Source: Thermoanaerobaculia bacterium
Lineage (GTDB): Bacteria; Acidobacteriota; Thermoanaerobaculia; UBA5066
Length of the DNA: 64,000 nucleotides
Assembly (NCBI GenBank): GCA_038245905.1
Contig: JBBRRY010000015.1
Coordinates: 1 to 64,000 of the forward strand
Reading direction: 5' to 3'
Under the pieces are notes generated by a model, which saw only the letters and a list, made by a program, of their open reading frames with translations, made no database searches and had not been told where the DNA came from. Position 1 is the first letter of the stretch, and each line of letters begins with the position of its first letter. This document shows positions 10,900 to 28,641 of this stretch, in pieces. The position numbers were made by a program, and so were the translations under genes.

Positions 10900-13551
10900 T
10901 TAGAAGCGGTAGGACACCCGTGAGTAGATGAAGCGCCCGTTGTAGCCGTAGGGCGAGTTGTTCGGAAAGCGGTTGATGCCGCTGTTGCTGTTCGCGAAGA
11001 TGACCTGATCCGGCGTCACGTCGCCGAGGTTCTGCGCTCCGAATGCGATCCGGAGATGGGAAAACGTCCAGCCGAGCTCGACATCGACGAGCCAGTTCGA
11101 GGGAAACGTCTGGTCCACGGCCGTTCCCGGGCCGAACGGCGCCTCGCCGGAGCCGTTCGCGATCCCGCAGAACGAGCCGTAGCGCGTCGCCGTCACGTTC
11201 ACGCCGACCGGGCCGCTGGACCAGTCGGCCGTCGCGCGGACGGTGTCCTTCGGCTGGGCGCACTCGAAGCGCTTGACCTCGAGCCGATCGAAGAGAGTCG
11301 TCTGGAACGCGGCGAGCTGGGGCGGCGTGGCCGCGATGTTCGTGACGCTCGTCTCGGCGTGCGCCCAGGACATCTGGAACCTGATGATGCCGTTCGGCCC
11401 GAGGTCCTCGTGGTAGTTGCCAATGACCTCGACCCCATCTGTGCGCGTGTCGATGGCGTTCGTGAAGAAACGCACGCCCGTCGCGCCGAAGGGCTGCAGG
11501 ATGGGGTTGAGTGCCGCGCCCGTGAAATTTCCCGAGAAGACGATGCGGTTCTTGATCGCGATGTTGAAATAGTCGGCTGTCAGGTCGAAGCGGCGGTCCG
11601 GGGAGAGGACGAGCCCGCCCCCGAAATTGACGGAATCCTCGGGCCTGAGCGACGTGGCGCCGAGCGCCTGCGCGACGGGGCTGTCGACGCGCGCCGTCAG
11701 GATGTCGAACGGCTGGTTCACGCCGTTGATGTTCAGGAAGTTCGTCGAGACGGTCGAGAAGTAGGATTGCCCGAGCGAGGGCGCGCGGAAGCCGGTGGAG
11801 GCGGACCCACGGGCGACGAGCCAGGGCAGGACCTCGTACCTGAGGGTGCCCTTGAAATTCGTGGAGTTGCCGAAATCGGTGAAGTGCTCGAAGCGAACGG
11901 CCGCTCCCGCACGCAGCTTCTTCATGACGTTAGCCTCGAAGTCGGCATAGGCCGCGACGTCGCTGCGGTTCGTGTCGATTTCGTTGGCGGGCCGGAAGCC
12001 CGGGAAGACCTGTGAGCCCGGGGCCCCGGGACCGCCGTCCTGCGCCTTGAAGCCGCCGTCGATGTAAGAGTTCTTTTCTCCGGCGATCTGGCGGTAGCGG
12101 TCGTTGCGGAACTCCGCCCCGAACGCGACGTTGAGCGGACCCGCGAGACCGATCGAGAATTCGCGCGAAATGTCGAGGTTCGAGACGAACTGTCCGAAGA
12201 CGAGCGACCCCGCGTCGAACGAGGTCTGGTTCAGAACCGGCGACGGGCCGAGGGAGACGTTCAGGCTGTCCACGACGCGGAAGTCGAACTGGTTGCGGCC
12301 GTACTGCGCCGAGAGGTCCCAGAACCACTTTCCGCCCAGAACGCCGCGCACGCCCGCGGTCGCGGAATAGTCGATCGTCGTCGGCGTGATCTTCGGAAGG
12401 AATCCGTTCGGGTAGATCGTGGGCCAGTTCGTGGCCTGGAGGGCGCGCCGGAAGTTGCCGGCCGAGTCCGCGTACCTGTAGCTCGCGCCGCCGAAAAGGT
12501 AGGCGCTCGCCGTGCCGTCGGCACTGATCGGGAACACGCCGTTCATGAAGCCGAGAACGTCGGACGTCGCGGGATCGCCGTAGCGCGTGTTGGGCTGATT
12601 GATCACGTCCCGCGATCCCTGCGCGCGTGGGTCCTCGCCCGCGCGGTTCGTCGCGTTGCGGCGCCGGAACTCGCCCGTGAAGTTGATCGAGCCGGACCCG
12701 ACGGGAATTCCGACGTTTCCGTTCAGGTCGAAGAGAGAGCCGTCCTGGTGGGTCGTCTCTCCCCCGGTGACCGTGAGGTCGAACGGCGACGGGCCCGAGC
12801 GGAGGTTGAGGTTCAGGACGCCCGCGATCGCGTCGGAGCCGTATTGTGCGGCGGCGCCGTCCCTGAGGAGCTCGATGTGGTCGAGCGCCTGCGCCGGGAT
12901 GGCGTTGAGGTCCACGCCCGCCGAGCCCCGTCCGACCGTGCCGTTCACGTTCACGAGAGAGCTGGTGTGGCGGCGCTTGCCGTTGAGGAGGACGAGGAGC
13001 TGGTCGGGTCCGAGGCTGCGGATCGTGGCGGGCCGGGTCGTATCGGTGCCATCCGAGATCGTCGTGCGCGGGAAGTTGAACGACGGCACGAGCTTCTGGA
13101 TGACCTGAGCCATCTCGCCGGAAGGGCTGGCCTGTTCGATCTGCCTTTGAGTGAGGATGTCGACCGGGACCGCCTTCTCGACGTCGGCGCCCGCCGCGCG
13201 GGAGCCGACGGTGACCTGCGCGCTCACGCCGAGGGTCATCGAGAAGTCCTGCGTGACCGCGCCGGGCGTCAGCGTGACACGGGCGGATTTCGCGGAGAGG
13301 CCCGGAGCGACGACGCGAAGCTCGACCGTGCGTCCCTTCGCGATCGCGGCTGGAATCCTGATTTCATACCTGCCGTCCCTGCCGGCCTTCGCCGAGAGCT
13401 CGAGGTCGGCGATCGCGACGGTTGCGCCCGGATAGGGGAGCCCGTCCTCTTTCGTCGTCACGGTGCCCGTGACGACCGTCGCCTCCTGTGCCAGGGCGGG
13501 GGAGGCCGCGATCAGAAAGACACCGAACAACGCCCCGAATAGCTTTCGCAT
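10900..13551 (-). CDS. TonB-dependent receptor with N-terminal carboxypeptidase-regulatory-like domain
   Basis: Signal peptide MRKLFG...ALA, plug motifs LVLLNGKRRH and IELLRDGAAAQYGSDAIAGV, C-terminal YRF. GGAGGAG RBS before ATG 13551. Confidence 0.95.
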   Translation of the reverse strand: MRKLFGALFGVFLIAASPALAQEATVVTGTVTTKEDGLPYPGATVAIADLELSAKAGRDGRYEIRIPAAIAKGRTVELRVVAPGLSAKSARVTLTPGAVTQDFSMTLGVSAQVTVGSRAAGADVEKAVPVDILTQRQIEQASPSGEMAQVIQKLVPSFNFPRTTISDGTDTTRPATIRSLGPDQLLVLLNGKRRHTSSLVNVNGTVGRGSAGVDLNAIPAQALDHIELLRDGAAAQYGSDAIAGVLNLNLRSGPSPFDLTVTGGETTHQDGSLFDLNGNVGIPVGSGSINFTGEFRRRNATNRAGEDPRAQGSRDVINQPNTRYGDPATSDVLGFMNGVFPISADGTASAYLFGGASYRYADSAGNFRRALQATNWPTIYPNGFLPKITPTTIDYSATAGVRGVLGGKWFWDLSAQYGRNQFDFRVVDSLNVSLGPSPVLNQTSFDAGSLVFGQFVSNLDISREFSIGLAGPLNVAFGAEFRNDRYRQIAGEKNSYIDGGFKAQDGGPGAPGSQVFPGFRPANEIDTNRSDVAAYADFEANVMKKLRAGAAVRFEHFTDFGNSTNFKGTLRYEVLPWLVARGSASTGFRAPSLGQSYFSTVSTNFLNINGVNQPFDILTARVDSPVAQALGATSLRPEDSVNFGGGLVLSPDRRFDLTADYFNIAIKNRIVFSGNFTGAALNPILQPFGATGVRFFTNAIDTRTDGVEVIGNYHEDLGPNGIIRFQMSWAHAETSVTNIAATPPQLAAFQTTLFDRLEVKRFECAQPKDTVRATADWSSGPVGVNVTATRYGSFCGIANGSGEAPFGPGTAVDQTFPSNWLVDVELGWTFSHLRIAFGAQNLGDVTPDQVIFANSNSGINRFPNNSPYGYNGRFIYSRVSYRF

Positions 13552-13650
13552 GGACTCTCCTCCTCGAGAGAACGCAAACATGACCTGGAGTTGGCGGTAC
13601 TTTGGGACATGTACCCGGTCGAGGTCAACGCCTTCGCAGAACTTCGACGC

Positions 13651-16246: not shown

Positions 16247-16639
16247 TCACCTGTAGATGAGGCGCTCGTGCGACCAGTGGCCAGGGTAGTAACGAGTTCC
16301 GCCGCGCACCCTCTGGTAGCGGGGAGCGATCCAGCGCGCGCGGGCGCGCGGCCGTTCGAACCAGCGGCCGTCGTTCCAGCTCCAGTCCGTACCCGTGTGG
16401 TTCCAATACCCGCCCTGCCATACGTGATTCGGGCCCGGCCGCGCGATGCGGACTTCGTGGCGGCGCTCCGGTGGAGCCTGCGGGACGATGCGGACGTGCA
16501 GATCGCCCATCATCGGGGGCGCGGGCATCCCGGGCGGCACGGGGGGGTGAGGCTGCGCGATCGCCGTCCCCGCGAAGGGCAAGGCGGCCGCCAGCACGAG
16601 GAGAGCGGCGGAGAGAGTGAGATGTTTGGTTTTTCTCAT
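16247..16639 (-). CDS. Secreted YXWGXW-repeat protein
   Basis: Signal peptide; APPERRHE, HVWQGGYW, WSWNDGRW, WIAPRY, YYPGHW repeats. Confidence 0.85.
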   Translation of the reverse strand: MRKTKHLTLSAALLVLAAALPFAGTAIAQPHPPVPPGMPAPPMMGDLHVRIVPQAPPERRHEVRIARPGPNHVWQGGYWNHTGTDWSWNDGRWFERPRARARWIAPRYQRVRGGTRYYPGHWSHERLIYR

Positions 16640-16738
16640 GACTGAGACTCTGCAAGCCTCAGGCCAGAAGGCGACGCTGTGCGGGTCAGAACGCTGGCTT
16701 TCGCACCGGCCTTCTGACATCCTCCGCCCACAAACCCG

Positions 16739-17074
16739 ATGGATCTCTCGCTCCACGAAGACGGAAGTGTCACGGTCGTCACGCTTTCTGGCGACCTCAT
16801 CATCGGCGACGCTGAGGCCGTGTTCAAGAAGACCGTGAGCCGTCTTCTCGAGGAAGGCAAAGTGCAGCTCGTCGTCGATTGCGGAGGCCTCAGATACGTC
16901 GATTCGTCCGGCCTCGGCGCTCTCGTACGCGCGCTCACGACGTCGCAGCACGAGGGCGGCGGGACGAAGCTCCTGGGGGTCCCGTCGTCGCTGCGGAAGC
17001 TTCTCGAGCTGACGAAGCTGGATTCCGTCTTCGAGATGTTCGAACAGCGCGACGAGGCCGTCTCGAGCTTCTAG
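16739..17074 (+). CDS. STAS-domain anti-sigma factor antagonist
   Basis: 111 aa; VVDCGGLRYVDSSGLGAL phosphorylation motif; LELTKLDSVF. Confidence 0.93.
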   Translation: MDLSLHEDGSVTVVTLSGDLIIGDAEAVFKKTVSRLLEEGKVQLVVDCGGLRYVDSSGLGALVRALTTSQHEGGGTKLLGVPSSLRKLLELTKLDSVFEMFEQRDEAVSSF

Positions 17075-17101
17075 ATCGCCGGCGCTCCGGCGCCGGAAAC
17101 G

Positions 17102-19522
17102 GTGCACATGGGTGACGTCCACGGAACGGGCCGGACCTCCGAAGCCGAATCCGGCGTTCTCGGAGAGCTCGCGCGCTGCGAGACCGTCGCGCAGAAGGCG
17201 GCATGGGCCGCACGCTGGTGCGCGCGACTCTCCGGAGCGGACATCGCGCTAGTCTTCTGCGTCGACGCGCCCTCCGGCGGGTGGATCGCCCTCGGCGCTT
17301 CCGGCGAAGGCGCGGCGAAGAGCCTTCGCCGCGTCATCCCACGGGATGCGGGCGTCGCGCGGGATGCCGCGCGCAGTCGCGCGCTCCGCGTGATGCGCCG
17401 CGACGATGCCGCTTTCGTTTCCGATCCGATCGTGTCCCTACTCCCGGGGGGCTCCGGATCTGTCCTCATCGCCCCGCTTCTTCTCGACAAGGGTGCGGCC
17501 GGCGTGGCGGCGCTCTCCTTCCGTCAGGAGCCGGCGGCAGAGCGGATCGGGCGGCTCGAAGCCTTCCTGCCCGACGCCGCCGCGGCACTCGATCGCGCGC
17601 AGCTCGCGGAACGCAAGACGGCCGGGCACCTTTTTGCCATCGAGCGTCTCACGAACCTGTACGACGTCGCGAAAGCGTTCGGCTCGACGATCGATCTGGA
17701 AGACCTGTCCGGACTCATCGCCCGGAAGGCCGCGGACTTCGTGGCGGCCGAGGTCGCGTCGTTCTGGCTTTTCGACTCCGAGGCGGGTGAAGTCTCTCTG
17801 GCGGCGACGGCTCTCAACGAGAACTACGAGATACCGAATCCGCCCGAGTCCATCGGCGGGTCCATCGTCGGGGCCGTCCTCGCGGACCGAACGATCCTGA
17901 GAAACAGCGCGCTCGCGGACGACGATCCCCTCCGGCACGCCGATCCGCCCTTCGAGACACGCTCTGTGCTCGCCGTGCCGCTCGTCGAGGACGACTCTCC
18001 GGTCGGCGTCCTCGTCGCCGCCAACAAGCGCGGGCGCCGCCCGGAGTTCACCGCGGCGGACGAGGAGCTACTCGTCGACGTCGCCCGGCAAGCCGTCGCC
18101 GCCTTGCGTAACGCGCGGCAGTACGAGGCCGAGAAGAAAGTCGAGGAACTGGACGCCCTCCTCGCGGTGAGCCACGAGATCACCTCGACGCTCGACCTCG
18201 ACAAGGTGATGCGGACGATCGTCAACGGAGCGTCGGCCCTGATCCGTTACGACCTTTGCGCAATCGCGATCCTTCAGCGGGGGAAGCTGCGGATTGGGGC
18301 GGTCTCAGGGGCGTTGGACGTGGACCGGAAAGAGCCGTCGGTTCGGCGGACCGAGGCGCTCCTCGAGTGGGTCTTCTTCGGCGGCTCCGACGTCGCCGTC
18401 ACGCGCCGCGAGGACGGCACCATCGCCACCGACCGCCCGGAGACAGAGGAGAAGTTCCGCGCGTTCTTCGACGAGAGCGGCCGCAACGCGTTCTACGGAG
18501 TCCTGCTCGAGGACGACGAGGGAAAACTTGGCGTTCTCGGCTTCGAGTCGACGGAGCCCCTCGAGTTCGAGGCGGAGACCCGGGATCTCCTCCGGATCCT
18601 CGTCAACCAGGCCACCGTGGCCGTCCGCAATGCCCAGCTCTACCAGCAGGTTCCCCTGCCTGGCTTCCTCCGGCCTCTCGCGGAGCGGACACGGAAGCTG
18701 CGGGAGCAGCCCGGCAACCGCGCCCGGCGATGGGTGCTCGGGAGCGCTGGTGCCATGGTCCTTTTGGCCGTCCTGCCGTGGAATGTGAGGGTGTCCGGGC
18801 CCGCGCGGGTCGTGCCGGGCCGGCGGATCCCGGTCACGGCGTCCGTGGAAGGCGTCGTCGAGAGCGTGGCGCATCGCGAGGGGGATGCCGTCGTCGCCGG
18901 GGCCGTCCTCGCGACGCTTCGCGACGACGCCTACCGCGCCGCGGCGGCAGAGGCGCGCGCGGCCGAACAGATCGCCGACTCCGAGGTCTCCCGGCACCGC
19001 GCCGAGGGAAACGCTCCCGCACTTTTCCAGTCCGCCGCCCGCCGCGACGAATTGCGGGCGCGCGCGGCTCTCGCGGAGGAGAAGCTCGAGAGGACGCGCC
19101 TCCGCGCGCCCGAGGCCGGCATCATCCTGACGCCACGGCTCGAGGAGCGCCTCGGCCAGCTCCTTCCCGCCGGCGCCGAGTTCGCGGTCCTCGCCGAGAC
19201 GTCCGCCGTCCTCGTCGAGGTGGCCGTGCCGGAACGGGATGCGTCGCTCCTCGCCGCCGGGCAGAGGGTCGACGTCAAGCTGAACTCATATCCCGCGGCG
19301 ACGTTCCACGGGACCGTCGCCCGCCTCGGCGCCGTCGTCCGCGAGGAAGGTGAGGAGCGTTTCGTCATCGCCGAGGCGCGCGTCGAGAACGCGGACGCGC
19401 TGCTCCGGCCCGGAATGCTCGGGAAAGCCAAAGTTTCGACGGGACGCCAGCGGCTTCTCCGCGCCCTCCTCCGCAAGCCGGCGCGCTGGTTCTGGGTACG
19501 GCTCTGGCCTCTCCTGCCGTGA
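17102..19522 (+). CDS. Multi-GAF domain / membrane fusion protein (HlyD/RND periplasmic adaptor) fusion
   Basis: About three GAF-like repeats (LIAPLL, LAVPLVEDDSPVGVLVAANK...FTAADEELL, NQATVAVRNAQLY), one TM helix, then lipoyl/hairpin MFP (EGVVESVAHREGDAV; LRAPEAG; LRPGM). Start is GTG 17102 or ATG 17108. Confidence 0.88.
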   Translation: MHMGDVHGTGRTSEAESGVLGELARCETVAQKAAWAARWCARLSGADIALVFCVDAPSGGWIALGASGEGAAKSLRRVIPRDAGVARDAARSRALRVMRRDDAAFVSDPIVSLLPGGSGSVLIAPLLLDKGAAGVAALSFRQEPAAERIGRLEAFLPDAAAALDRAQLAERKTAGHLFAIERLTNLYDVAKAFGSTIDLEDLSGLIARKAADFVAAEVASFWLFDSEAGEVSLAATALNENYEIPNPPESIGGSIVGAVLADRTILRNSALADDDPLRHADPPFETRSVLAVPLVEDDSPVGVLVAANKRGRRPEFTAADEELLVDVARQAVAALRNARQYEAEKKVEELDALLAVSHEITSTLDLDKVMRTIVNGASALIRYDLCAIAILQRGKLRIGAVSGALDVDRKEPSVRRTEALLEWVFFGGSDVAVTRREDGTIATDRPETEEKFRAFFDESGRNAFYGVLLEDDEGKLGVLGFESTEPLEFEAETRDLLRILVNQATVAVRNAQLYQQVPLPGFLRPLAERTRKLREQPGNRARRWVLGSAGAMVLLAVLPWNVRVSGPARVVPGRRIPVTASVEGVVESVAHREGDAVVAGAVLATLRDDAYRAAAAEARAAEQIADSEVSRHRAEGNAPALFQSAARRDELRARAALAEEKLERTRLRAPEAGIILTPRLEERLGQLLPAGAEFAVLAETSAVLVEVAVPERDASLLAAGQRVDVKLNSYPAATFHGTVARLGAVVREEGEERFVIAEARVENADALLRPGMLGKAKVSTGRQRLLRALLRKPARWFWVRLWPLLP

Positions 19523-21714
19523 GCGCAGCTGCGCCGGACCCGGTCTCGCGGTACGTTGCGGCCGCCCGCGGCGGACGCGGCGCGGCGGCTCTCGCCGCGC
19601 GCCACACCCCTCGGCAGGACCACCCCGCCCTTCGGGCGGACCTCGTCATCCGCCGCCAGGTGCGAATCGGCGAGGTCACCTGGGTCGTCAAGCAACCGGA
19701 GGCGAACAAGTTCTACAACTTCGAGGACGCCGACTGGACCCTCATCGAGCTTTTCGACGGAACGCGGAGTCTCACTGAAATCCGCGAGGAGTACTGCCGG
19801 CGGGTCCCGGGAGGCGAGATCGCCTTCACCCTCATCCTCGACTACCAGGAGATGCTGCAAAGGATCGAGTTCCTGGAGCAGTCGGCGGCCGAGAAGAACC
19901 TCCAGCTCCTGTCGAAGTTCAAGACCCTGAGGCAGAAAGCGGCGGAGGAGCGCGCGGAGGGTTTCAACATCCTCTTCATGCTCTTCAAGGTCTTCGACCC
20001 CGACCGGATCCTCAATCGGACGATCCGGTACGTCCGCTGGCTCTGGAGTCCCCCCGTCGTCGCGGTCGCCTGTGTCGCGTTCCTCTTCACGATCGGTGTC
20101 TTCGCGGCGCGCTTCGACACGATCTGGGCCCAGACGATCGAGCTCTACTCGTTCCTGAGAAAGCCGTTCTGGGACTTCGTCCAATTCTGGGTCATCCTGA
20201 CCACGATCGGCTGCATCCACGAGTTCGGTCATGGCTATGCCACGAAGATGTACGGGGGCGAGGTCCATGACATGGGGATCGCCCTCCTCTACTTCATGCC
20301 TGCCTTTTACTGCGACACGACGGACTCGCTCCTCTTCCCGAGCAAGTGGCAGAAGCTGACGGTCACGGTGGCGGGGATCTACATCGAGGCGATCCTCTGC
20401 ACGATCGCGACGGCGCTCTGGGTGGCGAGCTACCCCGACACGCTTCTCCACGAGCTGGCCTACAAGACGATGCTCTTCACCGGGGTCTCGACGATCTTCT
20501 TCAACATCAACCCCCTCGTGAAGATCGACGGCTACTACGCGCTTTGCAGCCTCACCGAGATCCCGGAGCTGCGCGAGGAGTCTTTCCGCTGGATGGGCGC
20601 GATCTTCCAGCGCCACATCCTCCGCCTGAACGTCGAGGTGCCGGTCGTGTCGCGGCGGAAGAGGCGGATCTTCCTGATCTACGGTCCGCTCGCGCTGGGC
20701 TACATCGGTTTCATCATGGCGTTCATCACGAAGCTCCTCGACAACTTCTACTCGAAGGTCGTCCCGGAGCTGGCCGTCGTCCTCCTCCTCGTCACGCTCT
20801 ACTTCTTCTTCCGGAAGAGGGTCCGCCTCGTCCTCCGGATCTCCCGCCTCTTCTATCTCGACAAGAAGGAGCTCGTCATGTCGCCGCGCGCCCGTCTCCC
20901 TCTCCTTGCTGCCGCCGCCGGCCTCGTCCTCTTTCTCGCCGTCCCCTGGGGCCGGCGGACGATCAGGATGGACGCCGTCCTCGAGCCCGCCGCGTCGGTG
21001 AAGGTCGAGGCCCCGGAGGACGGAGTCGTGCGGGAGGTCTTCGCGCGCGAAGGGGACATCCTGCGGGCGGGCCAACCGCTTTTCCGGATCGAGAGCCCCG
21101 GCGTCGTGGCCGATTCCGCGTCCCTCTCGGCCCGCCGCGCGGGGGCTGCCGACGAGATGGGAAGGAGCTTCCGGTCCGGAGACGCCGGGGAGGTCTATCG
21201 GGCCGAGCGGAAGGAGGGGGCGGCCGCAGCCGGTCTTGCCCTCGACACGGCGCGCACGGCGCGACTCTCCGTGCTCAGCCCGATGGACGGGCGTCTCCTT
21301 TCGGAAGGCGCGGAAAACCTCGTCGGCAGGTGGGTTACGGCAGGAACCGTTCTCGGAACAGTTGGCGCCACGCGGCAGCTCACGGCAGTATTCCCGGTCT
21401 CGGAGCGCCTTCTGACAGACCTTGTGGTCGGAGCGCCGGTTTCGGTGCAGCTTCGCGCGCGCCCGTTCCACATCCTCCACGGCACGATTGTTTCCATAGC
21501 TCCCGCGTCTCAGGCCGCTTCGTCCGACACCCCCCCGGCACTCCGCCCGTCCGAAACGCCCGGCCGCATCGTGGCTGTGGCGCGTTTCGAAAATCCCGAC
21601 GGCAGCCTGAAGCCGAGGCTCGAAGGGAGGGCGAAGATCAGGGGGCCTCGGAGCTCGCTCCTCGGAGAGGGCTTCCGGATCCTCTCCCGTTGGCTCCGCG
21701 CGATCGCCTGGTGA
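19519..21714 (+). CDS. RRE/PqqD-like domain + M50 (site-2) metalloprotease + HlyD/MFP fusion
   Basis: N-terminal PALRADL...KQPEANKFYNF...FDGTRSLTEI winged-helix pattern; IHEFGH (HExxH) and NINPLVKIDGY; C-terminal MFP (APEDGVVREVFAREGDIL). Start overlaps the upstream stop. Confidence 0.88.
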   Translation: MSAAAPDPVSRYVAAARGGRGAAALAARHTPRQDHPALRADLVIRRQVRIGEVTWVVKQPEANKFYNFEDADWTLIELFDGTRSLTEIREEYCRRVPGGEIAFTLILDYQEMLQRIEFLEQSAAEKNLQLLSKFKTLRQKAAEERAEGFNILFMLFKVFDPDRILNRTIRYVRWLWSPPVVAVACVAFLFTIGVFAARFDTIWAQTIELYSFLRKPFWDFVQFWVILTTIGCIHEFGHGYATKMYGGEVHDMGIALLYFMPAFYCDTTDSLLFPSKWQKLTVTVAGIYIEAILCTIATALWVASYPDTLLHELAYKTMLFTGVSTIFFNINPLVKIDGYYALCSLTEIPELREESFRWMGAIFQRHILRLNVEVPVVSRRKRRIFLIYGPLALGYIGFIMAFITKLLDNFYSKVVPELAVVLLLVTLYFFFRKRVRLVLRISRLFYLDKKELVMSPRARLPLLAAAAGLVLFLAVPWGRRTIRMDAVLEPAASVKVEAPEDGVVREVFAREGDILRAGQPLFRIESPGVVADSASLSARRAGAADEMGRSFRSGDAGEVYRAERKEGAAAAGLALDTARTARLSVLSPMDGRLLSEGAENLVGRWVTAGTVLGTVGATRQLTAVFPVSERLLTDLVVGAPVSVQLRARPFHILHGTIVSIAPASQAASSDTPPALRPSETPGRIVAVARFENPDGSLKPRLEGRAKIRGPRSSLLGEGFRILSRWLRAIAW

Positions 21715-21724
21715 CCGTAAACAC

Positions 21725-21752
21725 GAGCGCCCCGGCCGGAGCCGGGGCGCTC
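21725..21752. terminator. Perfect 12-bp hairpin between convergent genes (probable terminator)
   Basis: GAGCGCCCCGGC-CGGA-GCCGGGGCGCTC, followed on the minus strand by GTGTTT. Confidence 0.7.
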
Positions 21753-21774
21753 ATGGACGCGGGGAGATGCGCCG

Positions 21775-22179
21775 TCAGTCGGCGTTGTCCGTCGCCCGCG
21801 CGTTCAGGATTTTGGGGGCCGCCTGCGTGCGGGCCGCGGTAACGCGGGGGGCCGCCTGCGCGCGGGCCGCGGTAACGCGGGGGGCCGCCTGGGCGCGGGC
21901 TGCGGTGACGCGAGGAGCCGCCTGCGCGCGGGCTGCGGTGACGCGAGGAGCCGCCTGCGCGCGAGCCGCGGTGACGCGAGCGGCTGCCTGCGCGCGCGCC
22001 ATGTTGACGCGGGGGGCCGCCTGCACACGGGCGCTCGTGACCTTGGCCGAAGTCGTCGGCGTCATGGCGGGGTTGTTGCCGAGATTGCTGACGCGGATCT
22101 CACCGACGGCCTGACCGGTCGCCTGCTTGATCTTCGCCTTCTGCTCGTCGGTCAGCTTGATCCGTACTTCGTTTGCCAT
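21775..22179 (-). CDS. 134-aa leader + tandem-repeat peptide; candidate exported precursor peptide
   Basis: AGGAGG RBS then ATG 22179; leader MANEVRIKLTDEQKAKIKQATG...; eight 11-aa units; synonymous variation between units. Confidence 0.85.
   Translation of the reverse strand: MANEVRIKLTDEQKAKIKQATGQAVGEIRVSNLGNNPAMTPTTSAKVTSARVQAAPRVNMARAQAAARVTAARAQAAPRVTAARAQAAPRVTAARAQAAPRVTAARAQAAPRVTAARTQAAPKILNARATDNAD
21781..22044 (-). repeat. Coding tandem repeat, 8 x 33 bp (consensus RVTAARAQAAP)
   Basis: On the plus strand GCCTG recurs at 21821, 21854, 21887, 21920, 21953, 21986 and 22019; terminal units are degenerate. Confidence 0.95.
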
Positions 22180-22243
22180 GGTGGCCTCCTCTTTCTTTCG
22201 TTCTTCCGTTCTCGTTGTCCCTGGCTTGGGGCGCAATCTCAAT

Positions 22244-22260
22244 TGCAAAGAGGGGGCCAG
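22244..22260 (-). promoter_or_regulatory. Sigma54 (-24/-12) promoter for the repeat-peptide gene
   Basis: Minus strand CTGGCCCCCTCTTTGCA = TGGC-N7-TTGCA, exact GG-N10-GC spacing, adjacent to a sigma54 activator gene. Confidence 0.75.
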
Positions 22261-22333
22261 ACCAGTCCGGCCGCCAGAGACCCGTAAGTGGTTGAGGAAA
22301 CGTCGAGACCGCCTCGTCGCGGTTACGCCGGCT

Positions 22334-22369
22334 CGATGACTCTTTCAACCTCGGTTGACGGATTCATCG
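22334..22369. promoter_or_regulatory. Dyad-symmetric candidate enhancer (UAS) for the sigma54 activator
   Basis: CGATGA-N5-TCAACC-TC-GGTTGA-N5-TCATCG, about 90 bp upstream of the -24 element; a related half-site GTTGA-N7-TCGA lies at 22291-22306. Confidence 0.5.
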
Positions 22370-22375
22370 GTCCGC

Positions 22376-23773
22376 TCAGAGGCGGTACTTCCGGCAGAGG
22401 TACTTCATCTGGTTTGCGTCGAGGCCGAGTGCTTCGGCGGCCCGCACCTTCACGCCTCCGGCGCGGGAAATGGCCTGGCTCACGAGCTCCCGTTCGAACC
22501 TTCCGACCGACTCGGCAAGGGAGAGGTCGGCAGAGTGCGTCGCGGCGGGTTGGGCCGGCTCCCGGGAGCCGCCGGCCCGGCCCAACGTCCCCGGCAGATG
22601 CTCCTCCCCGATCGTGTCGCCGTCCACCATGAGCGTCAGCATCTCGACGAGGTGTTCCAGCTCGCGCACGTTTCCGCGGAAGATGTGTCGCCCGAGCACC
22701 TCGAAGGCTTCGGACGAGAAGGCCTTCGGGCGGCGGCCATGGCGCTCTGCGGCCCGCGCCGTGAAGAATTCCACGAGCAAGGGGATGTCCTCGCGCCGCT
22801 CTCTCAGCGGCGGAATCCTCAGGATGACGGTGTTCAGGCGATAGAAGAGGTCATTGCGGAACGTTCCCGCCGCCACCTGACGCTCCAGGTCTTCGTTCGT
22901 GGCCGCGACGAGCCGGATGTCGACGTGGATCGTCTTCGTCCCGCCGACCCGCTCGAAGTCGCGCTGCTCGAGGACGCGCAACAACTTGGCCTGTACGGCC
23001 GGGGATAGTGTCGCGACTTCGTCCAGGAAGAGCGTCCCGCCGTGAGCCATCTCGAAACGCCCGGGCCGGGAGGCCACGGCCCCGGTGAAGGCACCCCGCT
23101 CATGGCCGAAGAGCTCGGACTCGGCTAGCGTCTCCGTGAGCGCCGAGCTGTTCACGGCTACGAACGGCCCGTCCCGGCGAGTGCTCCCCCGGTGGATCGC
23201 TTCGGCCACGAGCTCTTTCCCCGTTCCGCTTTCACCGGTCACGAGGACGGTCGCGTCGGTGGGGGCCACCTTCTCGATGGCGGCGAAGAGCCCGCGCATG
23301 CTTGGGCTCTCGCCCACCAGCCCGCCGTACGACCCACGCTTGAAGATCTCCTCCTTCAGCGCCCGGTTTTCAGCCAGGATGCGGTGTCGCTCCAAGGCTC
23401 GCCCGAGAACGAGGAGCAGCTCCGACTTCTCGAAGGGCTTCCGGAAGAAATCGAATGCACCCAGCTCGACGGCTTTCAGCGCCCAGCGGCGCTCCGCCTC
23501 CGCCGTCATGACCACGACCGTGGCGGCCGGCTGGCGCTGCCGAATGGCCCGCAGCAGACGGAGCCCCTCTTCCGCCTCGCCCGACGGCGGGAGCCGGAGG
23601 TCGACGAGGTAGACGTCGGGCTCGAGCTCGGCCAGCTTGAGCCCCGCGGCGGCGTCCCCTGCACTGTGGACTTCGAACCTGTCCTTCAGAGCCCAGAGGA
23701 GCTGGTCGCGCAGGAGCGGATCGTCTTCCACGACGGCGAGGCGCCCCTCCACCGTCTTTTGGACCACGCCCAC
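22376..23773 (-). CDS. Sigma54-dependent response regulator (REC-AAA+-HTH), PrsR/NtrC-like
   Basis: VVEDD, DLRLPP, GESGTGKE, ESELFGHERGAFTGA, FLDEV, DLFYRL, GNVREL, C-terminal Fis HTH. Confidence 0.95.
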   Translation of the reverse strand: MGVVQKTVEGRLAVVEDDPLLRDQLLWALKDRFEVHSAGDAAAGLKLAELEPDVYLVDLRLPPSGEAEEGLRLLRAIRQRQPAATVVVMTAEAERRWALKAVELGAFDFFRKPFEKSELLLVLGRALERHRILAENRALKEEIFKRGSYGGLVGESPSMRGLFAAIEKVAPTDATVLVTGESGTGKELVAEAIHRGSTRRDGPFVAVNSSALTETLAESELFGHERGAFTGAVASRPGRFEMAHGGTLFLDEVATLSPAVQAKLLRVLEQRDFERVGGTKTIHVDIRLVAATNEDLERQVAAGTFRNDLFYRLNTVILRIPPLRERREDIPLLVEFFTARAAERHGRRPKAFSSEAFEVLGRHIFRGNVRELEHLVEMLTLMVDGDTIGEEHLPGTLGRAGGSREPAQPAATHSADLSLAESVGRFERELVSQAISRAGGVKVRAAEALGLDANQMKYLCRKYRL

Positions 23774-23775
23774 GC

Positions 23776-24477
23776 CTACACCTGCCGGCCAGGCGCGGCC
23801 GGAAGCGGCAGGAAGAGACGGACGCTGGTGCCCTCGCCCTCCGCACTTCTAACCTCGACGTCGCCCCGGTGGTGGCGCAGGATGCGGCGCGCCGTGTAGA
23901 GACCGAGTCCCACGCCTCCGGGCTTCGTCGTCTGGAACGGCCGGAACAGGCGCCGCCGCACGAACTCTCCCGACATCCCGGGCCCGTCGTCCTCGACGTC
24001 GACCACGGCGAAGTCTCGCGCCCCTCGCCGCTCGAGGCTCGTGCGTACCGTCACGCAGCTCTTCGCGGCCTCCTGCGCGTTCTGAATCACGCCCTGGATC
24101 GCCTCTTGCAAGTAGTAAGGGTCGCCCCAGAGCCCGGGGACCTCGGCGAAGGTCGCGTTCATCCGCGGTGTCGACGCCCGCCCCCGGGGGTGGCACGTGT
24201 GCAGGGCCTCCCGGATCAGGTCGTTCAGATCGAGCGGCACCTTGATGAGGACCGAGTCGCGATGAGCCGACCAGCTTCTCGCGATCCCGTCGAGCTTCTG
24301 GACGGTGGATTGCAGGAGGTCCGTGGCGCTGCGTTTGAAATCCGGATCGCCGTAGTGCTCCTCCATGTTCGACAGGAGAAGGCTGAGGCGGAGCTCGAGG
24401 TTCCGGATGTCGTGGATGAGGACGGAGTCCTTCGTGGCGCGGATGCGTCGACGCGGGGCAGCCGTGCGTGTCGCCAT
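23776..24477 (-). CDS. Histidine kinase core (HisKA + HATPase), PrsK-like, without a sensor domain
   Basis: IHDIRNL H-box, IQNAQEA N-box, EDDGPGM, LFRPFQTTKPGGVGLGL; only about 20 aa precede the H-box. Confidence 0.88.
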   Translation of the reverse strand: MATRTAAPRRRIRATKDSVLIHDIRNLELRLSLLLSNMEEHYGDPDFKRSATDLLQSTVQKLDGIARSWSAHRDSVLIKVPLDLNDLIREALHTCHPRGRASTPRMNATFAEVPGLWGDPYYLQEAIQGVIQNAQEAAKSCVTVRTSLERRGARDFAVVDVEDDGPGMSGEFVRRRLFRPFQTTKPGGVGLGLYTARRILRHHRGDVEVRSAEGEGTSVRLFLPLPAAPGRQV

Positions 24478-24481
24478 GGTT

Positions 24482-25264
24482 TCAGGGCCGGGAAGGCGCA
24501 CGGAACGTGAGCCGGACCGCCATCCCCGGCCGCAGTATTTTTTTCGGATCGTGCTTCACCCGCACGATCACCTGCACCGTCCCGCTGCCCGGATCGATGA
24601 CGGGGCTGATGAACGAGACGCGCCCGCTCGAGCGTGCGTCCGGGAAATCCGGAGCCTCCACGGTCACTTCGTCACCGGTCTTCACGGTCTGAAGGCCGGA
24701 GGCCGGCAGATAGGCGCGCGCCAGAAGCGGCTGGAGCGCCATCACCTTGAAGAGCGGTTTGCTCTCTTCGAGCGTGAACTTTTCCCCCACGCGCGCGTAA
24801 CGGTCCGCCACGATCCCGTCGAAGGGAGCGCGCACCACGGACCGGTCGATCACGAGTTTCGCCCTCTCCAGCTCCACGAGGGCCAGCTCGTGTCGCGATC
24901 TTCTCTGCTCGAACTCGGCCTCGCTCGTCAGATTCTGGCGGCGCAGCTCCTCGTACCTTTTCAGGTCCGCGAGACTCACGGCGAGCGTCTCCTCCGCGGC
25001 TCTCAGATCCAGGCGGAACTCGCGCTGGTCCAGCGTGGCGAGCGGCTGCGACTTCCGCACGAGCTCGCCCCGCTCGACCTGGATCGAGTCGATCACGCCG
25101 CTGACCCGAGTCGTCACCGTGACTTCCTGCTCGACCATCAGGTTCGAGGCGACGGTGAGCGGCGCAGGAAGCGCCGGCGCCGGCAGAGCGGCGCTGGCCC
25201 TCGCGAGCGCAAGGAGGGAGACGGCGATGAACGCCCGACCGGTAAGCCGGATTGAGTCGCGCGT
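24482..25264 (-). CDS. Efflux RND/HlyD-type periplasmic adaptor (MFP), apparent ACG start
   Basis: VSGVIDSIQVERGELV, VRAPFDGIV, GRVSFISPVIDPGSGT, LRPGM. GGAGG lies 8 nt before an in-frame ACG that opens a signal-peptide-like segment; start uncertain. Confidence 0.85.
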   Translation of the reverse strand, partial: TRDSIRLTGRAFIAVSLLALARASAALPAPALPAPLTVASNLMVEQEVTVTTRVSGVIDSIQVERGELVRKSQPLATLDQREFRLDLRAAEETLAVSLADLKRYEELRRQNLTSEAEFEQRRSRHELALVELERAKLVIDRSVVRAPFDGIVADRYARVGEKFTLEESKPLFKVMALQPLLARAYLPASGLQTVKTGDEVTVEAPDFPDARSSGRVSFISPVIDPGSGTVQVIVRVKHDPKKILRPGMAVRLTFRAPSRP

Positions 25265-25305
25265 GACTTTTTCCTCCAGGGTGTCTGGAACGGAATGATA
25301 CCGAA

Positions 25306-26532
25306 TCAGGCGGGCGTGAGCGCGCGCACGAGGCGCTTGAGGGCCTCGTAGAAAACACCAGGCGGCGGCAGGAGGCTGACGACGACGAACGCCTCGAAAG
25401 GGAACTCGTAGAAATAGCCGGGCTGGACGAGCAGATCGTGTGATTCGAGGAGATCGAGGACGAGCTCCTCCTCGGGGCGGACAGCCGGCACGCGGAGGCA
25501 CGCGGCCCAGCCGGCCCGGACGGGTAGGACCGTAACACCGCCACCCGCGGGGAAGGCAGCCTTGAGCGCGCGCTCGTTGCGAAGCACGCGCGCCCAGATC
25601 GCTTCCGCCGTCCCGCGCCCGTACTCCAGAAGCCTGGGGAGCGCGAGCTGCACGGGCGTCGAGACGGAGAGATACGAATCCGCAACCCACTCGAGGCGCT
25701 CGATCGCCTGCTCGAGGAGCCCGGCGGGTCCATTCGCGAGTATCCATCCGAGCTTCATCTGCGGGAGGCCGGCCGACTTGGAGAGCCCGCCCAGCGAGAA
25801 AACGAGCGCTTCGGGCGCGTTCGCGGCTGCGGCCACGCGCACGTCGCCGGGCCGGTCCGAGTAGCGATAGTCGACGAACACCTCGTCGGAGACGACGGCG
25901 AACCGGCGCTCCTTCGCCAGCGTCATGAGATCCGACAGCTCCGCGCCAGAGAGGGAGGTGCCCGTCGGGTTGTTCGGATTGACGACGACCACGGCCGCGA
26001 CGCGACGTCCTTCCACCTCGACGCGCCGCACTTCCGCCTCCACGGCCGCCGCGTGGAACGCGAAGCCGTCATCGCTCGCGAGCGCGTAGCGGCGCAGCGA
26101 CAGGCACTCGAGCTCCGCGAGGGTGTCGAGAAGCGGGTAGGACGGCGCCGGCACGAGGACGACGTCGCCGGGATCGCCCACCAGCTTGAAAAGCCAGCCG
26201 TAGGCTTCGCTCGACGAGGCCGTCAGGACGATCTGGTGCGGGGGCGCGAGAACGCCGTGCAACGCCGCGTAGTAGTTGCTCACGGACGTGCGCGCCGCGA
26301 GCAGTCCCCTCGGATCGGGTGCATACGAGAGGCCGCGGGGATCGGAGAGAGCCGCGAGAATGCGCGCGTCCGGCGCCGACGCAGCGTTGTCGAAGAGGTC
26401 GGCTTCGCCCGAACGCAGAGAGACGGCGGTCGGATTCGACACGGCGAGATCGAGGAACGGGCGCGTTCGCGCCGCGACCGCGCGCGTCAGGCGGTTCACG
26501 TCGCGGGGGGCGGGGATCCGCTGCGAGAACAT
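25306..26532 (-). CDS. PLP-dependent aminotransferase class I/II
   Basis: VNPNNPTG, SDEVF, GGLSKSAGLPQMKLGW. Confidence 0.92.
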   Translation of the reverse strand: MFSQRIPAPRDVNRLTRAVAARTRPFLDLAVSNPTAVSLRSGEADLFDNAASAPDARILAALSDPRGLSYAPDPRGLLAARTSVSNYYAALHGVLAPPHQIVLTASSSEAYGWLFKLVGDPGDVVLVPAPSYPLLDTLAELECLSLRRYALASDDGFAFHAAAVEAEVRRVEVEGRRVAAVVVVNPNNPTGTSLSGAELSDLMTLAKERRFAVVSDEVFVDYRYSDRPGDVRVAAAANAPEALVFSLGGLSKSAGLPQMKLGWILANGPAGLLEQAIERLEWVADSYLSVSTPVQLALPRLLEYGRGTAEAIWARVLRNERALKAAFPAGGGVTVLPVRAGWAACLRVPAVRPEEELVLDLLESHDLLVQPGYFYEFPFEAFVVVSLLPPPGVFYEALKRLVRALTPA

Positions 26533-26547: not shown

Positions 26548-28641
26548 TCAGCGCCCGGACACGAGGTCTTCGGGTTTCCACGGCGAGGCGGCGCCGCCGA
26601 GGAACCTGTGGAACCAGTCGAGGTGCGCCGCGTAGTAGAGGCCCATCTCGAACGCGCTCGGCCAGTGGCCCGCCTTCTCGAACACGATCAGGCGCGACGG
26701 CACGCCGCGCGCCTGCAGGTCCGTGAAGAATTCGAGCGACTGCGTATAGGGAACGCGGAAGTCCTTTTCGCCGGTAATGACGAGGCAAGGGGTGCGGAAA
26801 TCTGTCACGTACGAGGACGGCGATTGCTTCGCGTAGAGGTCTCCGTTCTCCCACGGCGCGCCCTTGATGTCCCACTGGGGGAACCAGACCTCCTCGGTCG
26901 AGGAGTACATCGCGCGCAGGTCGTAGACGCCCATCATCGAGGCGAGGGCCTTGAACCTCGTCGTGTGGCCTTCGAGCCACATCGTCGCGTAGCCGCCCCA
27001 GGACCAGCCCATCGCGCCCATGCGGCTCTTGTCCACATACGGAAGCCTCTCGAGCGCGTCCGCGACTTTCTCGATGTCGGTCATCACGCGGCCGTTCCAG
27101 TCGCCCGAGATGGCCGACGTGTAGGCCTGGCCGAATCCGGTCGAGCCGTGCGGATTCGGAAATCCGACGACGTAACCCGCGCCCGGATAGACCTGCCAGT
27201 CGCCGCGGTAGGAGTCCGCCCACTGCTGCTGCGGCCCGCCGTGGATGTTCAGGATGAGCGGGTACTTCTTCGCAGGATCGAAGCCGTGCGGCTTGACGAT
27301 CCAGACCTGCACGGGCTGTCCGTCGGCACCGGGCACGCTGATCTCCTCGGCCGGCCGGATGTCGACCTCGTTTTCGAGGGCGGCGTTGTGCGTCGTCAGG
27401 CGCTGTCCCGCCTCGTCCGCGCCTTTCGCGAGAGAGAGGCGGTAGAGTTCGAGCGGGCTCCCGATGCGGCGCCGCGCGGCCACGGCGAAGGTCACGTCCG
27501 GCGCGAGCGTCCACGCGTCGAGAGACCCGACGGACGACACCGCGCGGAAGGCGCCCGTCGCGAGGACGATCTCGTAGAGCGGCGTTCGCCCCTTCACGTC
27601 GGCCGTGAAGAAGATCCGGCTTCCGTCCCGCGAGAAGTCGAAGTCGCGGACCGCGTTGTCGAACCTGGCCGTGAGGTCACGCTCGGCGCCGGTCGCGCGG
27701 TCCCGGAGGACGATCCGGAAGCGGTCGGCCTCGTAGCGGGGCGTGAGCTGCCGCTTGAAGGCGAGGAAGCGGCCGTCGGGGGAATAACGCGGCGACCCGT
27801 CGTAGCCCTTGTTCCAGGCCGTGAGATTTTTCGGGACTCCGTCACCCTTCACGGCGACGGTCCAGACGTCCGCGTTCGTCGAGAAGGCGGCGTCCGCGTC
27901 GCGGTTCGAAGAGAACGTGAGCTCGGTCCCGTCCGGCGAGAGGTCGAAGTCCCGCCCGCCACCGACCGAGAAGACGGGCGAGTCGAAGTCGCCCGGTGTC
28001 AGGTCGCGAATCGCCTTCGCCGCGTCGGGCTCGGCAAGGTCGAGGATGAAAACATGCGTGCGCTTCCCGTCCTTCCACTCGGTCCAGTGCCGGTAGAGGA
28101 GGGCGTCCGCGAGGTGCGCCTTGATCTTGTTCGCCTCGTGCGCGTCGGCCGCCTTCTTGTTGCACGCCGCGTCGGCGCCGCAGGAGGGGACGACGTCCGC
28201 CGCGAAGAAGACGGACCGGCCGTCCTTCGAGAAGGCCGGCCCGTCGATCCCTCCGGGGAACCGGGTCTTCTGCTCGGCCTCGCCGCCGCCAAGAGGGAGG
28301 AAGAAAAGCTGCGGTTCACCCGTACGCGTCGAAACGAACGCGAGCGTCTTTCCGTCAGGCGAGAAGAACGGGTGCTCGTCGCGCGCGTCGCCTGCGGTGA
28401 TCGGCCGGGCGTTTGTCCCGTCCGCGTCCACGCGCCAAAGGGCGGCGGTCTTCCTCTTCGTCGCCCAGTCGTTCGTCGTGACGGTGTAGACGATCGCCTT
28501 CCCGTCGGGCGAGATCGCGGGCTCGCCGACGGCCTTCACGCGATAGAGGTCCTCGAGCGTGAAGGCGCGGCCGGAGGAGGCGGCGAGAGCGGGAGAGGCG
28601 AGGACGAAGAAGAGGGCGAAGGCGGTGGACAGTTTCGGCAT
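26548..28641 (-). CDS. Secreted S9 family peptidase (PD40 propeller + catalytic domain)
   Basis: Signal peptide, SPDG repeats, IHGGP, GWSWGG, GEKDFRVP, AGH. Confidence 0.95.
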   Translation of the reverse strand: MPKLSTAFALFFVLASPALAASSGRAFTLEDLYRVKAVGEPAISPDGKAIVYTVTTNDWATKRKTAALWRVDADGTNARPITAGDARDEHPFFSPDGKTLAFVSTRTGEPQLFFLPLGGGEAEQKTRFPGGIDGPAFSKDGRSVFFAADVVPSCGADAACNKKAADAHEANKIKAHLADALLYRHWTEWKDGKRTHVFILDLAEPDAAKAIRDLTPGDFDSPVFSVGGGRDFDLSPDGTELTFSSNRDADAAFSTNADVWTVAVKGDGVPKNLTAWNKGYDGSPRYSPDGRFLAFKRQLTPRYEADRFRIVLRDRATGAERDLTARFDNAVRDFDFSRDGSRIFFTADVKGRTPLYEIVLATGAFRAVSSVGSLDAWTLAPDVTFAVAARRRIGSPLELYRLSLAKGADEAGQRLTTHNAALENEVDIRPAEEISVPGADGQPVQVWIVKPHGFDPAKKYPLILNIHGGPQQQWADSYRGDWQVYPGAGYVVGFPNPHGSTGFGQAYTSAISGDWNGRVMTDIEKVADALERLPYVDKSRMGAMGWSWGGYATMWLEGHTTRFKALASMMGVYDLRAMYSSTEEVWFPQWDIKGAPWENGDLYAKQSPSSYVTDFRTPCLVITGEKDFRVPYTQSLEFFTDLQARGVPSRLIVFEKAGHWPSAFEMGLYYAAHLDWFHRFLGGAASPWKPEDLVSGR

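Follow-up and report, generated by a model that had tools for sequence, protein, structure and literature searches.

The subject of this analysis is a block of seven genes at positions 16739-25267 of a 64,000-nucleotide (nt) stretch of DNA from a Thermoanaerobaculia bacterium (GenBank assembly GCA_038245905.1, contig JBBRRY010000015.1, positions 1 to 64,000), referred to below as the window. A first-pass annotation, made from the sequence alone, had described two convergent gene units here. The + strand carries a STAS gene, a gene for a membrane fusion protein (MFP) with GAF domains (GAF-MFP), and a gene for a protease-adaptor fusion (M50-MFP); the - strand carries a third adaptor gene (MFP3), a kinase gene, a sigma54 activator gene and a gene for a small repeat peptide. 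Open reading frame (ORF) listing and domain scans with Pfam and NCBIfam found every one of the seven genes where it had been placed. Taken together, the genes seem to form a system for peptide production and export that has not been described. Its parts are as follows.

16739-17074, + strand: STAS protein, a SpoIIAA-like anti-sigma antagonist of 111 amino acids (aa); Pfam STAS, 65 bits
17102-19522, + strand: GAF-MFP, read as GAF-GAF-GAF, one transmembrane (TM) helix and a periplasmic adaptor, 806 aa; Pfam and NCBIfam
[quoted passage not shown]
19615-19878, + strand: predicted RRE, a PqqD-like winged helix, aa 33-120 of the fusion; fold and profile searches
20929-21711, + strand: periplasmic MFP domain of the fusion (lipoyl, alpha-hairpin and beta-barrel), aa 471-731; Foldseek
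21722-21755, no strand assigned: hairpin of the convergent units, bidirectional terminator-like; arms 21722-21736 and 21741-21755
21775-22179, - strand: precursor peptide, 134 aa; conserved leader, ribosome-binding site and tandem repeats
22060-22179, - strand: leader, about aa 1-40 of the peptide; aligned homologues
~21814-22032, - strand: tail of 11-aa repeats (ARAQAAPRVTA type); Tandem Repeats Finder (TRF)
22245-22259, - strand: sigma54 -24/-12 element, TGGCCCCCTCTTTGC; consensus match
22376-23773, - strand: NtrC-family sigma54 enhancer-binding response regulator, 465 aa; REC, AAA+ and HTH_8
23776-24501, - strand: soluble histidine kinase, 241 aa; HATPase_c
24482 to ~25267, - strand: MFP3, a small membrane-anchored adaptor of about 261 aa; RND_mfp

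The GAF-MFP stop and the M50-MFP start overlap by 4 nt, and the two units meet at a shared hairpin with 15-nt arms and a 4-nt loop. This hairpin had been called perfect, which is true of its inner 12 bp; over the full arms it is near-perfect (93% complementary).

Evidence that the block is a conserved functional unit, as had been supposed, came from synteny in relatives, from a wider scan and from distant loci. Twenty loci of relatives were fetched, the 20th of which (L029) ends at a contig end. In all 19 with enough flank, the six protein genes occur in the same order and orientation, with a peptide-bearing gap of 0.6-1.4 kb; the flanking genes are common only to the closest relatives. The wider pattern scan, of one genome per species, found 120 relatives, and the best 80 loci, which partly overlap the first 20, were examined. 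All seven genes are present in 57 of these, 20 are cut by contig ends, and three (L058, L061 and L074) are long loci with one or two matches missing at the 40%-coverage filter. In every complete locus a peptide gene lies inside the gap, in the orientation of the activator gene, and encodes a conserved leader and repeats. Twenty distant loci, at 25-39% identity, came from other Acidobacteriota classes; in 15, a sigma54 activator gene still converges on genes for GAF-MFP and M50-MFP; one locus runs into a contig end, and the weakest four have only parts. Because the seven-gene arrangement recurs in about 100 loci, it is far beyond chance.

The module occurs across Acidobacteriota of soil and sediment. 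Each of the three families in the window's order has it, as do several further classes of the phylum; in the window's own class it was not detected in the majority of the other families among the genomes sampled. Of 401 sampled Acidobacteriota genomes, 61 match the fusion's N-terminal and M50 part (E <= 1e-10; a tally that includes the unpublished genomes G025 and G190). Within the order, the fusion is full length and uninterrupted in 28 of 41 genomes (including the unpublished G025 and G030) and split or stop-interrupted in four, and nine have no M50 fusion or only weak adaptor-domain matches. In two same-genus genomes the fusion is broken by in-frame stops and frame changes (G018:C24:626132-628318 and G007:C6:379954-382145), and the module appears to decay in some lineages. 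One complete module of the Thermoanaerobaculia type (L107) stands in a record titled as an Acidithiobacillales metagenome-assembled genome; a binning error is the likely cause, and transfer is less likely.

The most striking feature of the module, absent from the first-pass annotation, is the hypervariability of the repeats in the peptide. The peptide gene has a GAGGAGG ribosome-binding site 6 nt 5' of its ATG. The first ~40 residues form a leader with the consensus MANEVRIKLTDxQKAKIKxATGKxxxEIRVxSLGxNPAV, in which M1, V5, L9, T10, Q13 and G22 are invariant among 48 aligned sequences; no double-glycine site is evident in that alignment. Nucleotide diversity in the leader is 0.21, 0.18 and 0.44 at codon positions 1, 2 and 3 (24 sequences), an excess at the third position that indicates a coding sequence under purifying selection. 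The tails are wholly different between species. In the window the tail repeats a 33-nt unit (6.6 copies, 88% matches by TRF). Among the 80 distinct peptides collected, the period ranges from 3 to 22 residues, with units such as KAT, AKPL, SPKL, SAQDL, KSPSL, RAQKAM, SGKPGL, AGRAAGKSI, ARSARNVEN and ARAQAAPRVTA, and repeat autocorrelation is >= 0.6 in 65. The 80 tails consist largely of Ala (26%), Ser (12%), Arg (12%), Lys (7%) and Thr (7%) and have no Cys or Trp; 52 are strongly cationic, 12 anionic and 16 near neutral. Related species have related units of the same period, for example the 9-mers AGRAAGKSI, AGRASAKNI and GARASGKSI, which suggests point change followed by homogenisation.

The peptide family becomes visible only by profile search, a word-index search with the leader having returned only 22 matches. 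Out of 1.84 billion proteins, the leader profile matched 430 representatives at E <= 1e-3; a threshold of E <= 1e-10 leaves 86. Nearly all are 45-260 aa long with the match at the N-terminus, and the tail is clearly repetitive in 50 of the 96 that have one long enough. Their only name is 'hypothetical protein', and they belong to no Pfam or NCBIfam family. The window peptide likewise has no Pfam or NCBIfam family above cut-off, its sole Pfam match being Apolipoprotein at 30.5 bits (cut-off 90); one homologue has a precomputed match to PF05403, and a protein atlas search with the peptide gave no usable match. Some long proteins that match the leader profile in many stretches (for example P0211, P0242, P0256 and P0283) were judged unrelated, having repeated LTxxQ motifs that are presumably of the periplasmic CpxP/Spy kind. 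The likeness between the leader's LTDEQK and the CpxP/Spy-like LTxxQ is probably convergence and not homology. Two other proteins, P0143 and P0152, match the profile in many stretches and have no LTxxQ motif.

Several peptide loci depart from the simple pattern. At least five (L028, L089, L090, L102 and L103) have two tandem peptide genes, and L066 has two leader matches; in the two-peptide loci each gene has its own -24/-12 element, one leader is often shortened, and the repeats are related but distinct. The peptide ORFs of L030, L047, L048, L112, P0145, P0155 and P0204 extend for 200-570 aa into Arg/Pro-rich sequence without repeats, which may reflect frameshifts, or assembly errors or collapse, within the repeats. 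In the window, the + strand opposite the repeats is also open (21767-22114, 115 aa, Ala/Arg-rich); this frame is a shadow of the repeat array and not a second gene.

The peptide gene is predicted to be under sigma54 control, in agreement with the earlier proposal. The element TGGCCCCCTCTTTGC (22245-22259, -) ends 65 nt, and begins 79 nt, upstream of the peptide ATG. It is the only match to the sigma54 consensus with one mismatch in the 64-kb window, where matches with two mismatches are no commoner than chance. Across the family, TGG-N9-TGC begins 43-81 nt upstream in 81 of 83 distinct leader genes, always in the form TGG[C/T]-N7-[T/G]TGC. Of 11 genes that come from distant loci or have another type of leader, 8 are also preceded by the element; among the other three, one has it by eye with the spacing longer by one base, and a second has a near-match. 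A single rpoN gene (398 bits) is present in the genome, and with the promoter element and the adjacent enhancer-binding protein gene the features expected of a sigma54-dependent gene are all present at the sequence level. A search of sequencing runs with 16739-25264 listed no RNA run and one DNA run, which may be the source sample.

The two regulators had been described as a PrsK/PrsR-like pair. The activator (Pfam Sigma54_activat 234.5 bits, Response_reg 69.5 bits) has PEP_resp_reg as its best NCBIfam match, at 429.5 bits against a cut-off of 502.6. In the kinase, HATPase_c (75.5 bits) is the sole domain detected, the domain scans finding no sensor or TM domain; an H-box, IHDIRN, is visible by eye. 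Its match to PrsK scores 142.8 bits (cut-off 300) and spans only the C-terminal 198 profile positions (482-679). PrsK and PrsR (TIGR02916 and TIGR02915), which drive sigma54 promoters of small low-complexity secreted proteins, are the best NCBIfam matches of the kinase and activator, but both scores fall below cut-off and the kinase lacks the membrane/GAF N-terminus of PrsK. Membership of the PEP-CTERM/PrsK-PrsR system was rejected on these sub-cut-off scores, the partial PrsK match and the lack of an exosortase in the module. An exosortase-like gene is present on another contig of the genome, and no PEP-CTERM-like hydrophobic C-terminal anchor was seen by eye in the tails. The sigma54 pair may supply inducible expression of the peptide, possibly auto-inducible.

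The protease part of the M50-MFP fusion, as first described, is an M50 enzyme of the site-2 protease type, a family marked by an HExxH zinc motif in a TM helix and a downstream NxxPxxxxDG motif that provides the third ligand: Peptidase_M50 (PF02163) scores 35.5 bits (cut-off 27.2), the HExxH and NPxxxxDG motifs are conserved, and H234, H238, N331, P332, D337 and G338 are invariant, with E235 at >= 90%, in 44 sequences down to 23% identity. HlyD_3 scores 58.8 bits. The nearest curated family is daptide_HExxH (NF041824), which covers aa 53-431 (E 1.2e-49); at 169.4 bits, below the cut-off of 300, and with no other conserved gene linked, the fusion stands outside the daptide metalloproteases. The match to YydH/LiaK (NF058609) is weaker, at 49 bits against a cut-off of 225. 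An AlphaFold2 model from the 44 sequences (mean pLDDT 83.2) shows, in order, three strands and three helices (aa 43-115), a long helix, the HExxH membrane core, a TM helix and the adaptor.

The earlier suggestion of an RRE-like N-terminus is supported by fold and profile matches. The N-terminal domain modelled alone (pLDDT 80.7) has leader-bound TbiB1 as its best fold match in the PDB (E 7.8e-4, target TM score 0.69-0.70), with further matches to PqqD, the sactipeptide-synthase RREs 5why and 5wgg, TruD and related heterocyclase entries, ThcOx, lasso B1 and PbtF. A profile search of the PDB ranks TbiB1 (E 0.012) and PqqD (0.076) first, and a homologue of the fusion, P0381, has a precomputed PqqD match in Pfam. 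Together, model and sequence profile support the prediction that this domain is an RRE. A prediction of the complex between leader aa 1-48 and fusion aa 30-175, run without controls, scored 0.01 against a mark of 0.32, which counts neither for nor against binding. At the other end of the fusion, the adaptor part of the model matches MexA, AcrA, MacA and ZneB at E ~1e-14 to 1e-13 (Foldseek), with hairpin helices at aa 527-553 and 556-582. Identity by domain, compared in search of a part that varies together with the tails, is lowest in this hairpin (21-40%) and highest in the M50 core (52-68%), a pattern that does not decide the matter.

In GAF-MFP, HlyD_D23 scores 76 bits, and RND_mfp, matched over profile positions 10-248 of 322, reaches 96.5 bits (cut-off 94.9); by eye a single hydrophobic stretch, taken as the TM helix, separates the GAF and adaptor domains. 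Pfam GAF scores 83 bits over two stretches above cut-off; the third GAF domain of the first-pass annotation, aa 38-164, is only sub-threshold (17.6 against 28.6 bits). MFP3 scores 158 bits with RND_mfp, over positions 18-248. All three adaptors match RND_mfp no further than position 248 of 322 (from 10 or 18), which we take to mean that none has a membrane-proximal domain. In other adaptors the membrane-proximal domain contacts RND or MacB pumps. The start of MFP3 is uncertain: no ATG, GTG or TTG lies between the upstream stop (25306) and the membrane anchor, and a GTC (25265-25267, -) stands 6-7 nt after a GGAGGA site. At this position in the relatives L018, L023, L025, L031 and L032 there is ATG in two and ATC in three. 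The GTC is either a non-canonical start or a sequence error.

The conserved block holds no ABC, RND, TolC or exosortase gene, as was noted at the outset. A two-motif regular expression (Walker A and LSGGQ; not a hidden Markov model) found an ABC-like ORF in only 1 of 121 stretches, upholding the claim that the module lacks a linked ABC ATPase. When ORFs of >= 220 aa from 34 diverse loci were compared all against all, no conserved RND or MFS permease family emerged, an indirect test through the clustering. The comparison likewise found no tailoring enzyme or other linked family, the largest extra family occurring in 7 of the 34 loci; here too the first description holds. The first-pass annotation had suggested looking for TolC elsewhere in the genome, and 22 OEP-domain matches in >= 11 ORFs lie on other contigs; the genome also holds MFPs besides the three of the module. 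Of the features that define a type I or tripartite system, the adaptor is therefore present, as three MFP domains, but an energised transporter encoded with it is not. Of those that define an RRE-dependent RiPP pathway, the module has a conserved leader with a variable core and a predicted RRE, but no tailoring enzyme; on present evidence, this lack of a tailoring enzyme means that the product is not a RiPP in the strict sense. The first-pass annotation had named homologous loci without similar leaders, or always with an ABC transporter, as evidence that would speak against it, and neither pattern was found.

Distant loci provide additional evidence on which parts belong together. MFP3 lies between the two larger adaptor genes in nine of them, which argues that the three adaptors work together. 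A kinase gene was detected beside the activator gene in eight and undetected in seven. The peptide is more varied. Leaders of the LTxxQ type with other repeats occur in L113, L114, L117, L118, L119 and L120, and without clear repeats in L125 and L132; a second leader type (M-x-I/M-Q-K-K-S-L-I...) with repeats occurs in L121, L123, L126 and L127. Short Lys-rich ORFs take the place of the peptide in L116 and L122, and no peptide was found in L124. Four examined loci have an FHA-led ORF of ~550 aa inside the module (L113:14072-15721, -; L118:1758-3419, +; L125:4015-5790, +; and L114), and in the three that were scanned (L113, L118 and L125) it encodes an FHA-GAF-SpoIIE (PP2C) phosphatase. The occurrence of this phosphatase with the STAS protein, which also exceeds the NCBIfam ant_ant_sig cut-off (63 against 53.45 bits) and has by eye a phosphoserine-type DSSGLG motif, suggests a partner switch. 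Part of the L123 fusion is 100% identical to a protein from a cultured Acidobacteriaceae species that NCBI names an M50 metallopeptidase, and this cultured carrier makes experiments feasible. This variant has 2733 relatives (90%-identity clusters) at E <= 1e-30 among 8000 candidates scored.

Our best explanation, held at about even odds, is that the module cleaves a repeat peptide under the guidance of its leader and exports it, unmodified, across the envelope. The first-pass annotation had proposed a machine without an ATPase that cleaves the peptide and exports it through a hetero-oligomeric MFP channel, with GAF/STAS/kinase feedback on its expression; these points stand as proposals. The analysis shows which genes are present and how far they are conserved, along with the promoter, the RRE fold, the catalytic motifs and the lack of linked tailoring and ATPase genes; we infer the binding, cleavage and export steps that follow, together with a TolC partner, an energy source and a role for the product. 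The kinase and NtrC-type activator would turn on the sigma54 promoter, giving a small cytoplasmic precursor with a conserved ~40-aa leader and a species-specific repeat tail. The leader would be bound by the cytoplasmic RRE domain of the M50-MFP fusion, and the intramembrane zinc protease would cut it off, probably near the conserved G-x-N-P-A. The unmodified tail would then leave the cytoplasm through an assembly of GAF-MFP, M50-MFP and MFP3, which would dock on a TolC-type channel encoded elsewhere. The cytoplasmic GAF domains, the STAS protein and, in some lineages, the FHA-GAF-PP2C phosphatase may gate the machine or report its state. An RRE on a leader-type protease, beside a gene with a conserved leader and a variable core, follows the logic of leader-directed peptide maturation, and three hairpin-bearing adaptors in a genome with TolC-family genes point to passage across the envelope.

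In our preferred reading the product would be a signal that is extracellular and species-specific, or else a surface or matrix peptide. The repeats turn over completely from species to species, arrays evolve in concert, and a precursor holds many copies of its short unit; diversifying pressure on a private signal, or on a peptide of the surface or matrix, would account for this better than a single conserved biochemical activity. In a bolder version, which we regard as possible but doubtful, the module would be a new kind of secretion machine, in which the three adaptors, including the RRE-M50 protein, form the whole inner-membrane and periplasmic apparatus and release private signals or surface codes without a pump.

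Several observations weigh against leader-guided cleavage and export. The evidence for both steps is indirect, and the peptide lacks the hydrophobic segment typical of classic site-2 protease substrates. No M50 protease is known to serve as a translocation pore, and the module has no energy-coupling protein, so export would require an unlinked transporter or a mechanism not yet described. The search for linked transporters rested on two motifs for ABC proteins and, indirectly, on clustering for RND and MFS permeases. The tails range from cationic to anionic and from helix-prone to proline-rich, so that no single activity of the product is evident, and the absence of the fusion from nine of 41 close relatives shows that the module is dispensable.

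Some of the same facts could be explained by regulated proteolysis. M50 enzymes classically act in signalling cascades, and the peptide might be a cytoplasmic regulatory substrate whose cleavage or degradation by the RRE-M50 protein tunes the kinase-activator pair; the periplasmic MFP domains, sensing the envelope, and a GAF/STAS/PP2C partner switch would gate that cleavage. A kinase without a sensor of its own, the conserved STAS protein, the phosphatase within the module in the four examined loci and the lack of a linked exporter are all consistent with such a circuit. We nevertheless think it unlikely: a hypervariable tail of variable length that dwarfs the conserved part is unexpected in a regulator, a sensor role hardly explains three TolC-type adaptors that have alpha-hairpins, and processed products are typically marked by a leader that is conserved and a core that varies. 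Alternatively, the adaptors could serve an unlinked ABC, MFS or RND pump in an ordinary tripartite exporter, with the M50 enzyme as leader peptidase only and no novelty in the transport step. The RiPP M50 proteases named in NCBIfam (daptide and YydH/LiaK) work beside ABC exporters. MFP3 and GAF-MFP exceed the RND_mfp cut-off, and the genome has many OEP genes and other MFPs. Yet no transporter is linked in about 120 loci from several classes, though MFP3 has moved between operons, and the adaptors match RND_mfp only over positions 10/18-248 of 322, from which we presume, as above, that the membrane-proximal domain is missing. These points make an ordinary exporter quite unlikely.

The remaining alternatives concern the peptide itself. 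It could be a disordered polyion-binding protein of the cytoplasm or periplasm (histone-H1/AlgP-like if cationic) that is merely co-regulated with an unrelated envelope module. The tails, rich in Ala, Ser, Arg, Lys and Thr, free of Cys and Trp and in 52 of 80 cases strongly cationic, have the right composition, and presumably resemble KPAA/SPKK-type tails. Such a role is improbable given that 12 of the 80 tails are anionic, that the peptide gene always adjoins the RRE-bearing protease, and that loci with a diverged RRE (18-29% identity) have a different leader type. The peptide might also be a chance open frame in GC-rich repeat DNA, an idea that draws on the open + strand opposite the repeats (21767-22114) and that is effectively refuted. 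The leader is conserved across classes with excess third-position variation, the ribosome-binding site is strong, a sigma54 element precedes 81 of 83 genes, the window's repeat unit has a length divisible by 3 nt, and the frame is open in 80 peptides.

Leader-guided export by this module would have partial parallels in known systems. M50 RiPP leader peptidases (NF041824 and NF058609) share the membrane HExxH core, the N-terminal region covered by the daptide model and a presumed role in leader removal, but here the protease is fused to a TM helix and an MFP, its substrate is a repeat peptide, its scores are below cut-off, and neither a tailoring enzyme nor an ABC exporter is linked. The RRE/PqqD domains of TbiB1, PqqD, lasso B1, LynD/TruD and 5why/5wgg have the same winged helix of three strands and three helices; the sequence E-values are weak (0.012-0.33), and the domain stands on a protease-adaptor fusion instead of a modifying enzyme. 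The adaptors of type I and tripartite systems (HlyD, MacA, AcrA, MexA, EmrA and ZneB), which work with TolC, have the same lipoyl, alpha-hairpin and beta-barrel parts, and TolC-family genes are present in the genome. Unlike those systems, the module has three different adaptors, of which two also have large parts in the cytoplasm or membrane (3xGAF and RRE-M50), and no linked energised inner-membrane transporter. A parallel in concept is with the peptidase-containing ABC transporters of double-glycine bacteriocins, where a C39 cysteine protease on an ABC pump couples leader cleavage to export. Here, too, a leader protease is joined to an export apparatus, but it is an M50 metalloprotease on an adaptor, with no ATPase and no evident double-glycine site. 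With SpoIIAA/SpoIIE-RsbU partner switching the module shares a STAS protein with DSSGLG and, in the four examined loci, the FHA-GAF-SpoIIE phosphatase, but it has no SpoIIAB/RsbW-type serine kinase or sigma factor. We regard the module as a variant of leader-directed peptide export, possibly a new kind.

No Pfam or NCBIfam model is specific to any part of the module, and the names given in public databases are 'HlyD family efflux transporter periplasmic adaptor subunit', 'putative peptide zinc metalloprotease protein' and 'hypothetical protein'. No description of the module was found in literature covered mostly at the level of abstracts, with subscription journals largely outside that coverage. 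In the accessible part of a review of tripartite pumps (Chem Rev 2021, PMC8277102), the sole match to 'M50' is the residue M507, and GAF is unmentioned.

If the proposed export reading is correct, the module would add a large family of ribosomal peptides with hypervariable short-repeat cores. It would provide a case in which an RRE is used without any tailoring enzyme and an intramembrane protease is directly tied to TolC-type adaptors, and how the inner membrane is crossed by a peptide that has no linked pump would become a question open to testing. Acidobacteriota, in which the module is common, are among the most abundant soil bacteria and are genetically poorly understood.

The genes around the block in the window are the following.

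10900-13581, - strand: TonB-dependent receptor
16250-16642, - strand: small secreted WXXGXW-repeat protein
25306-26532, - strand: class I/II aminotransferase
26548-28641, - strand: secreted S9 prolyl-oligopeptidase-type peptidase with PD40 repeats

These four neighbours are shared only with the closest relatives. Weak S9-like matches also occur near the distant loci L118, L120 and L124, where they may be due to chance.

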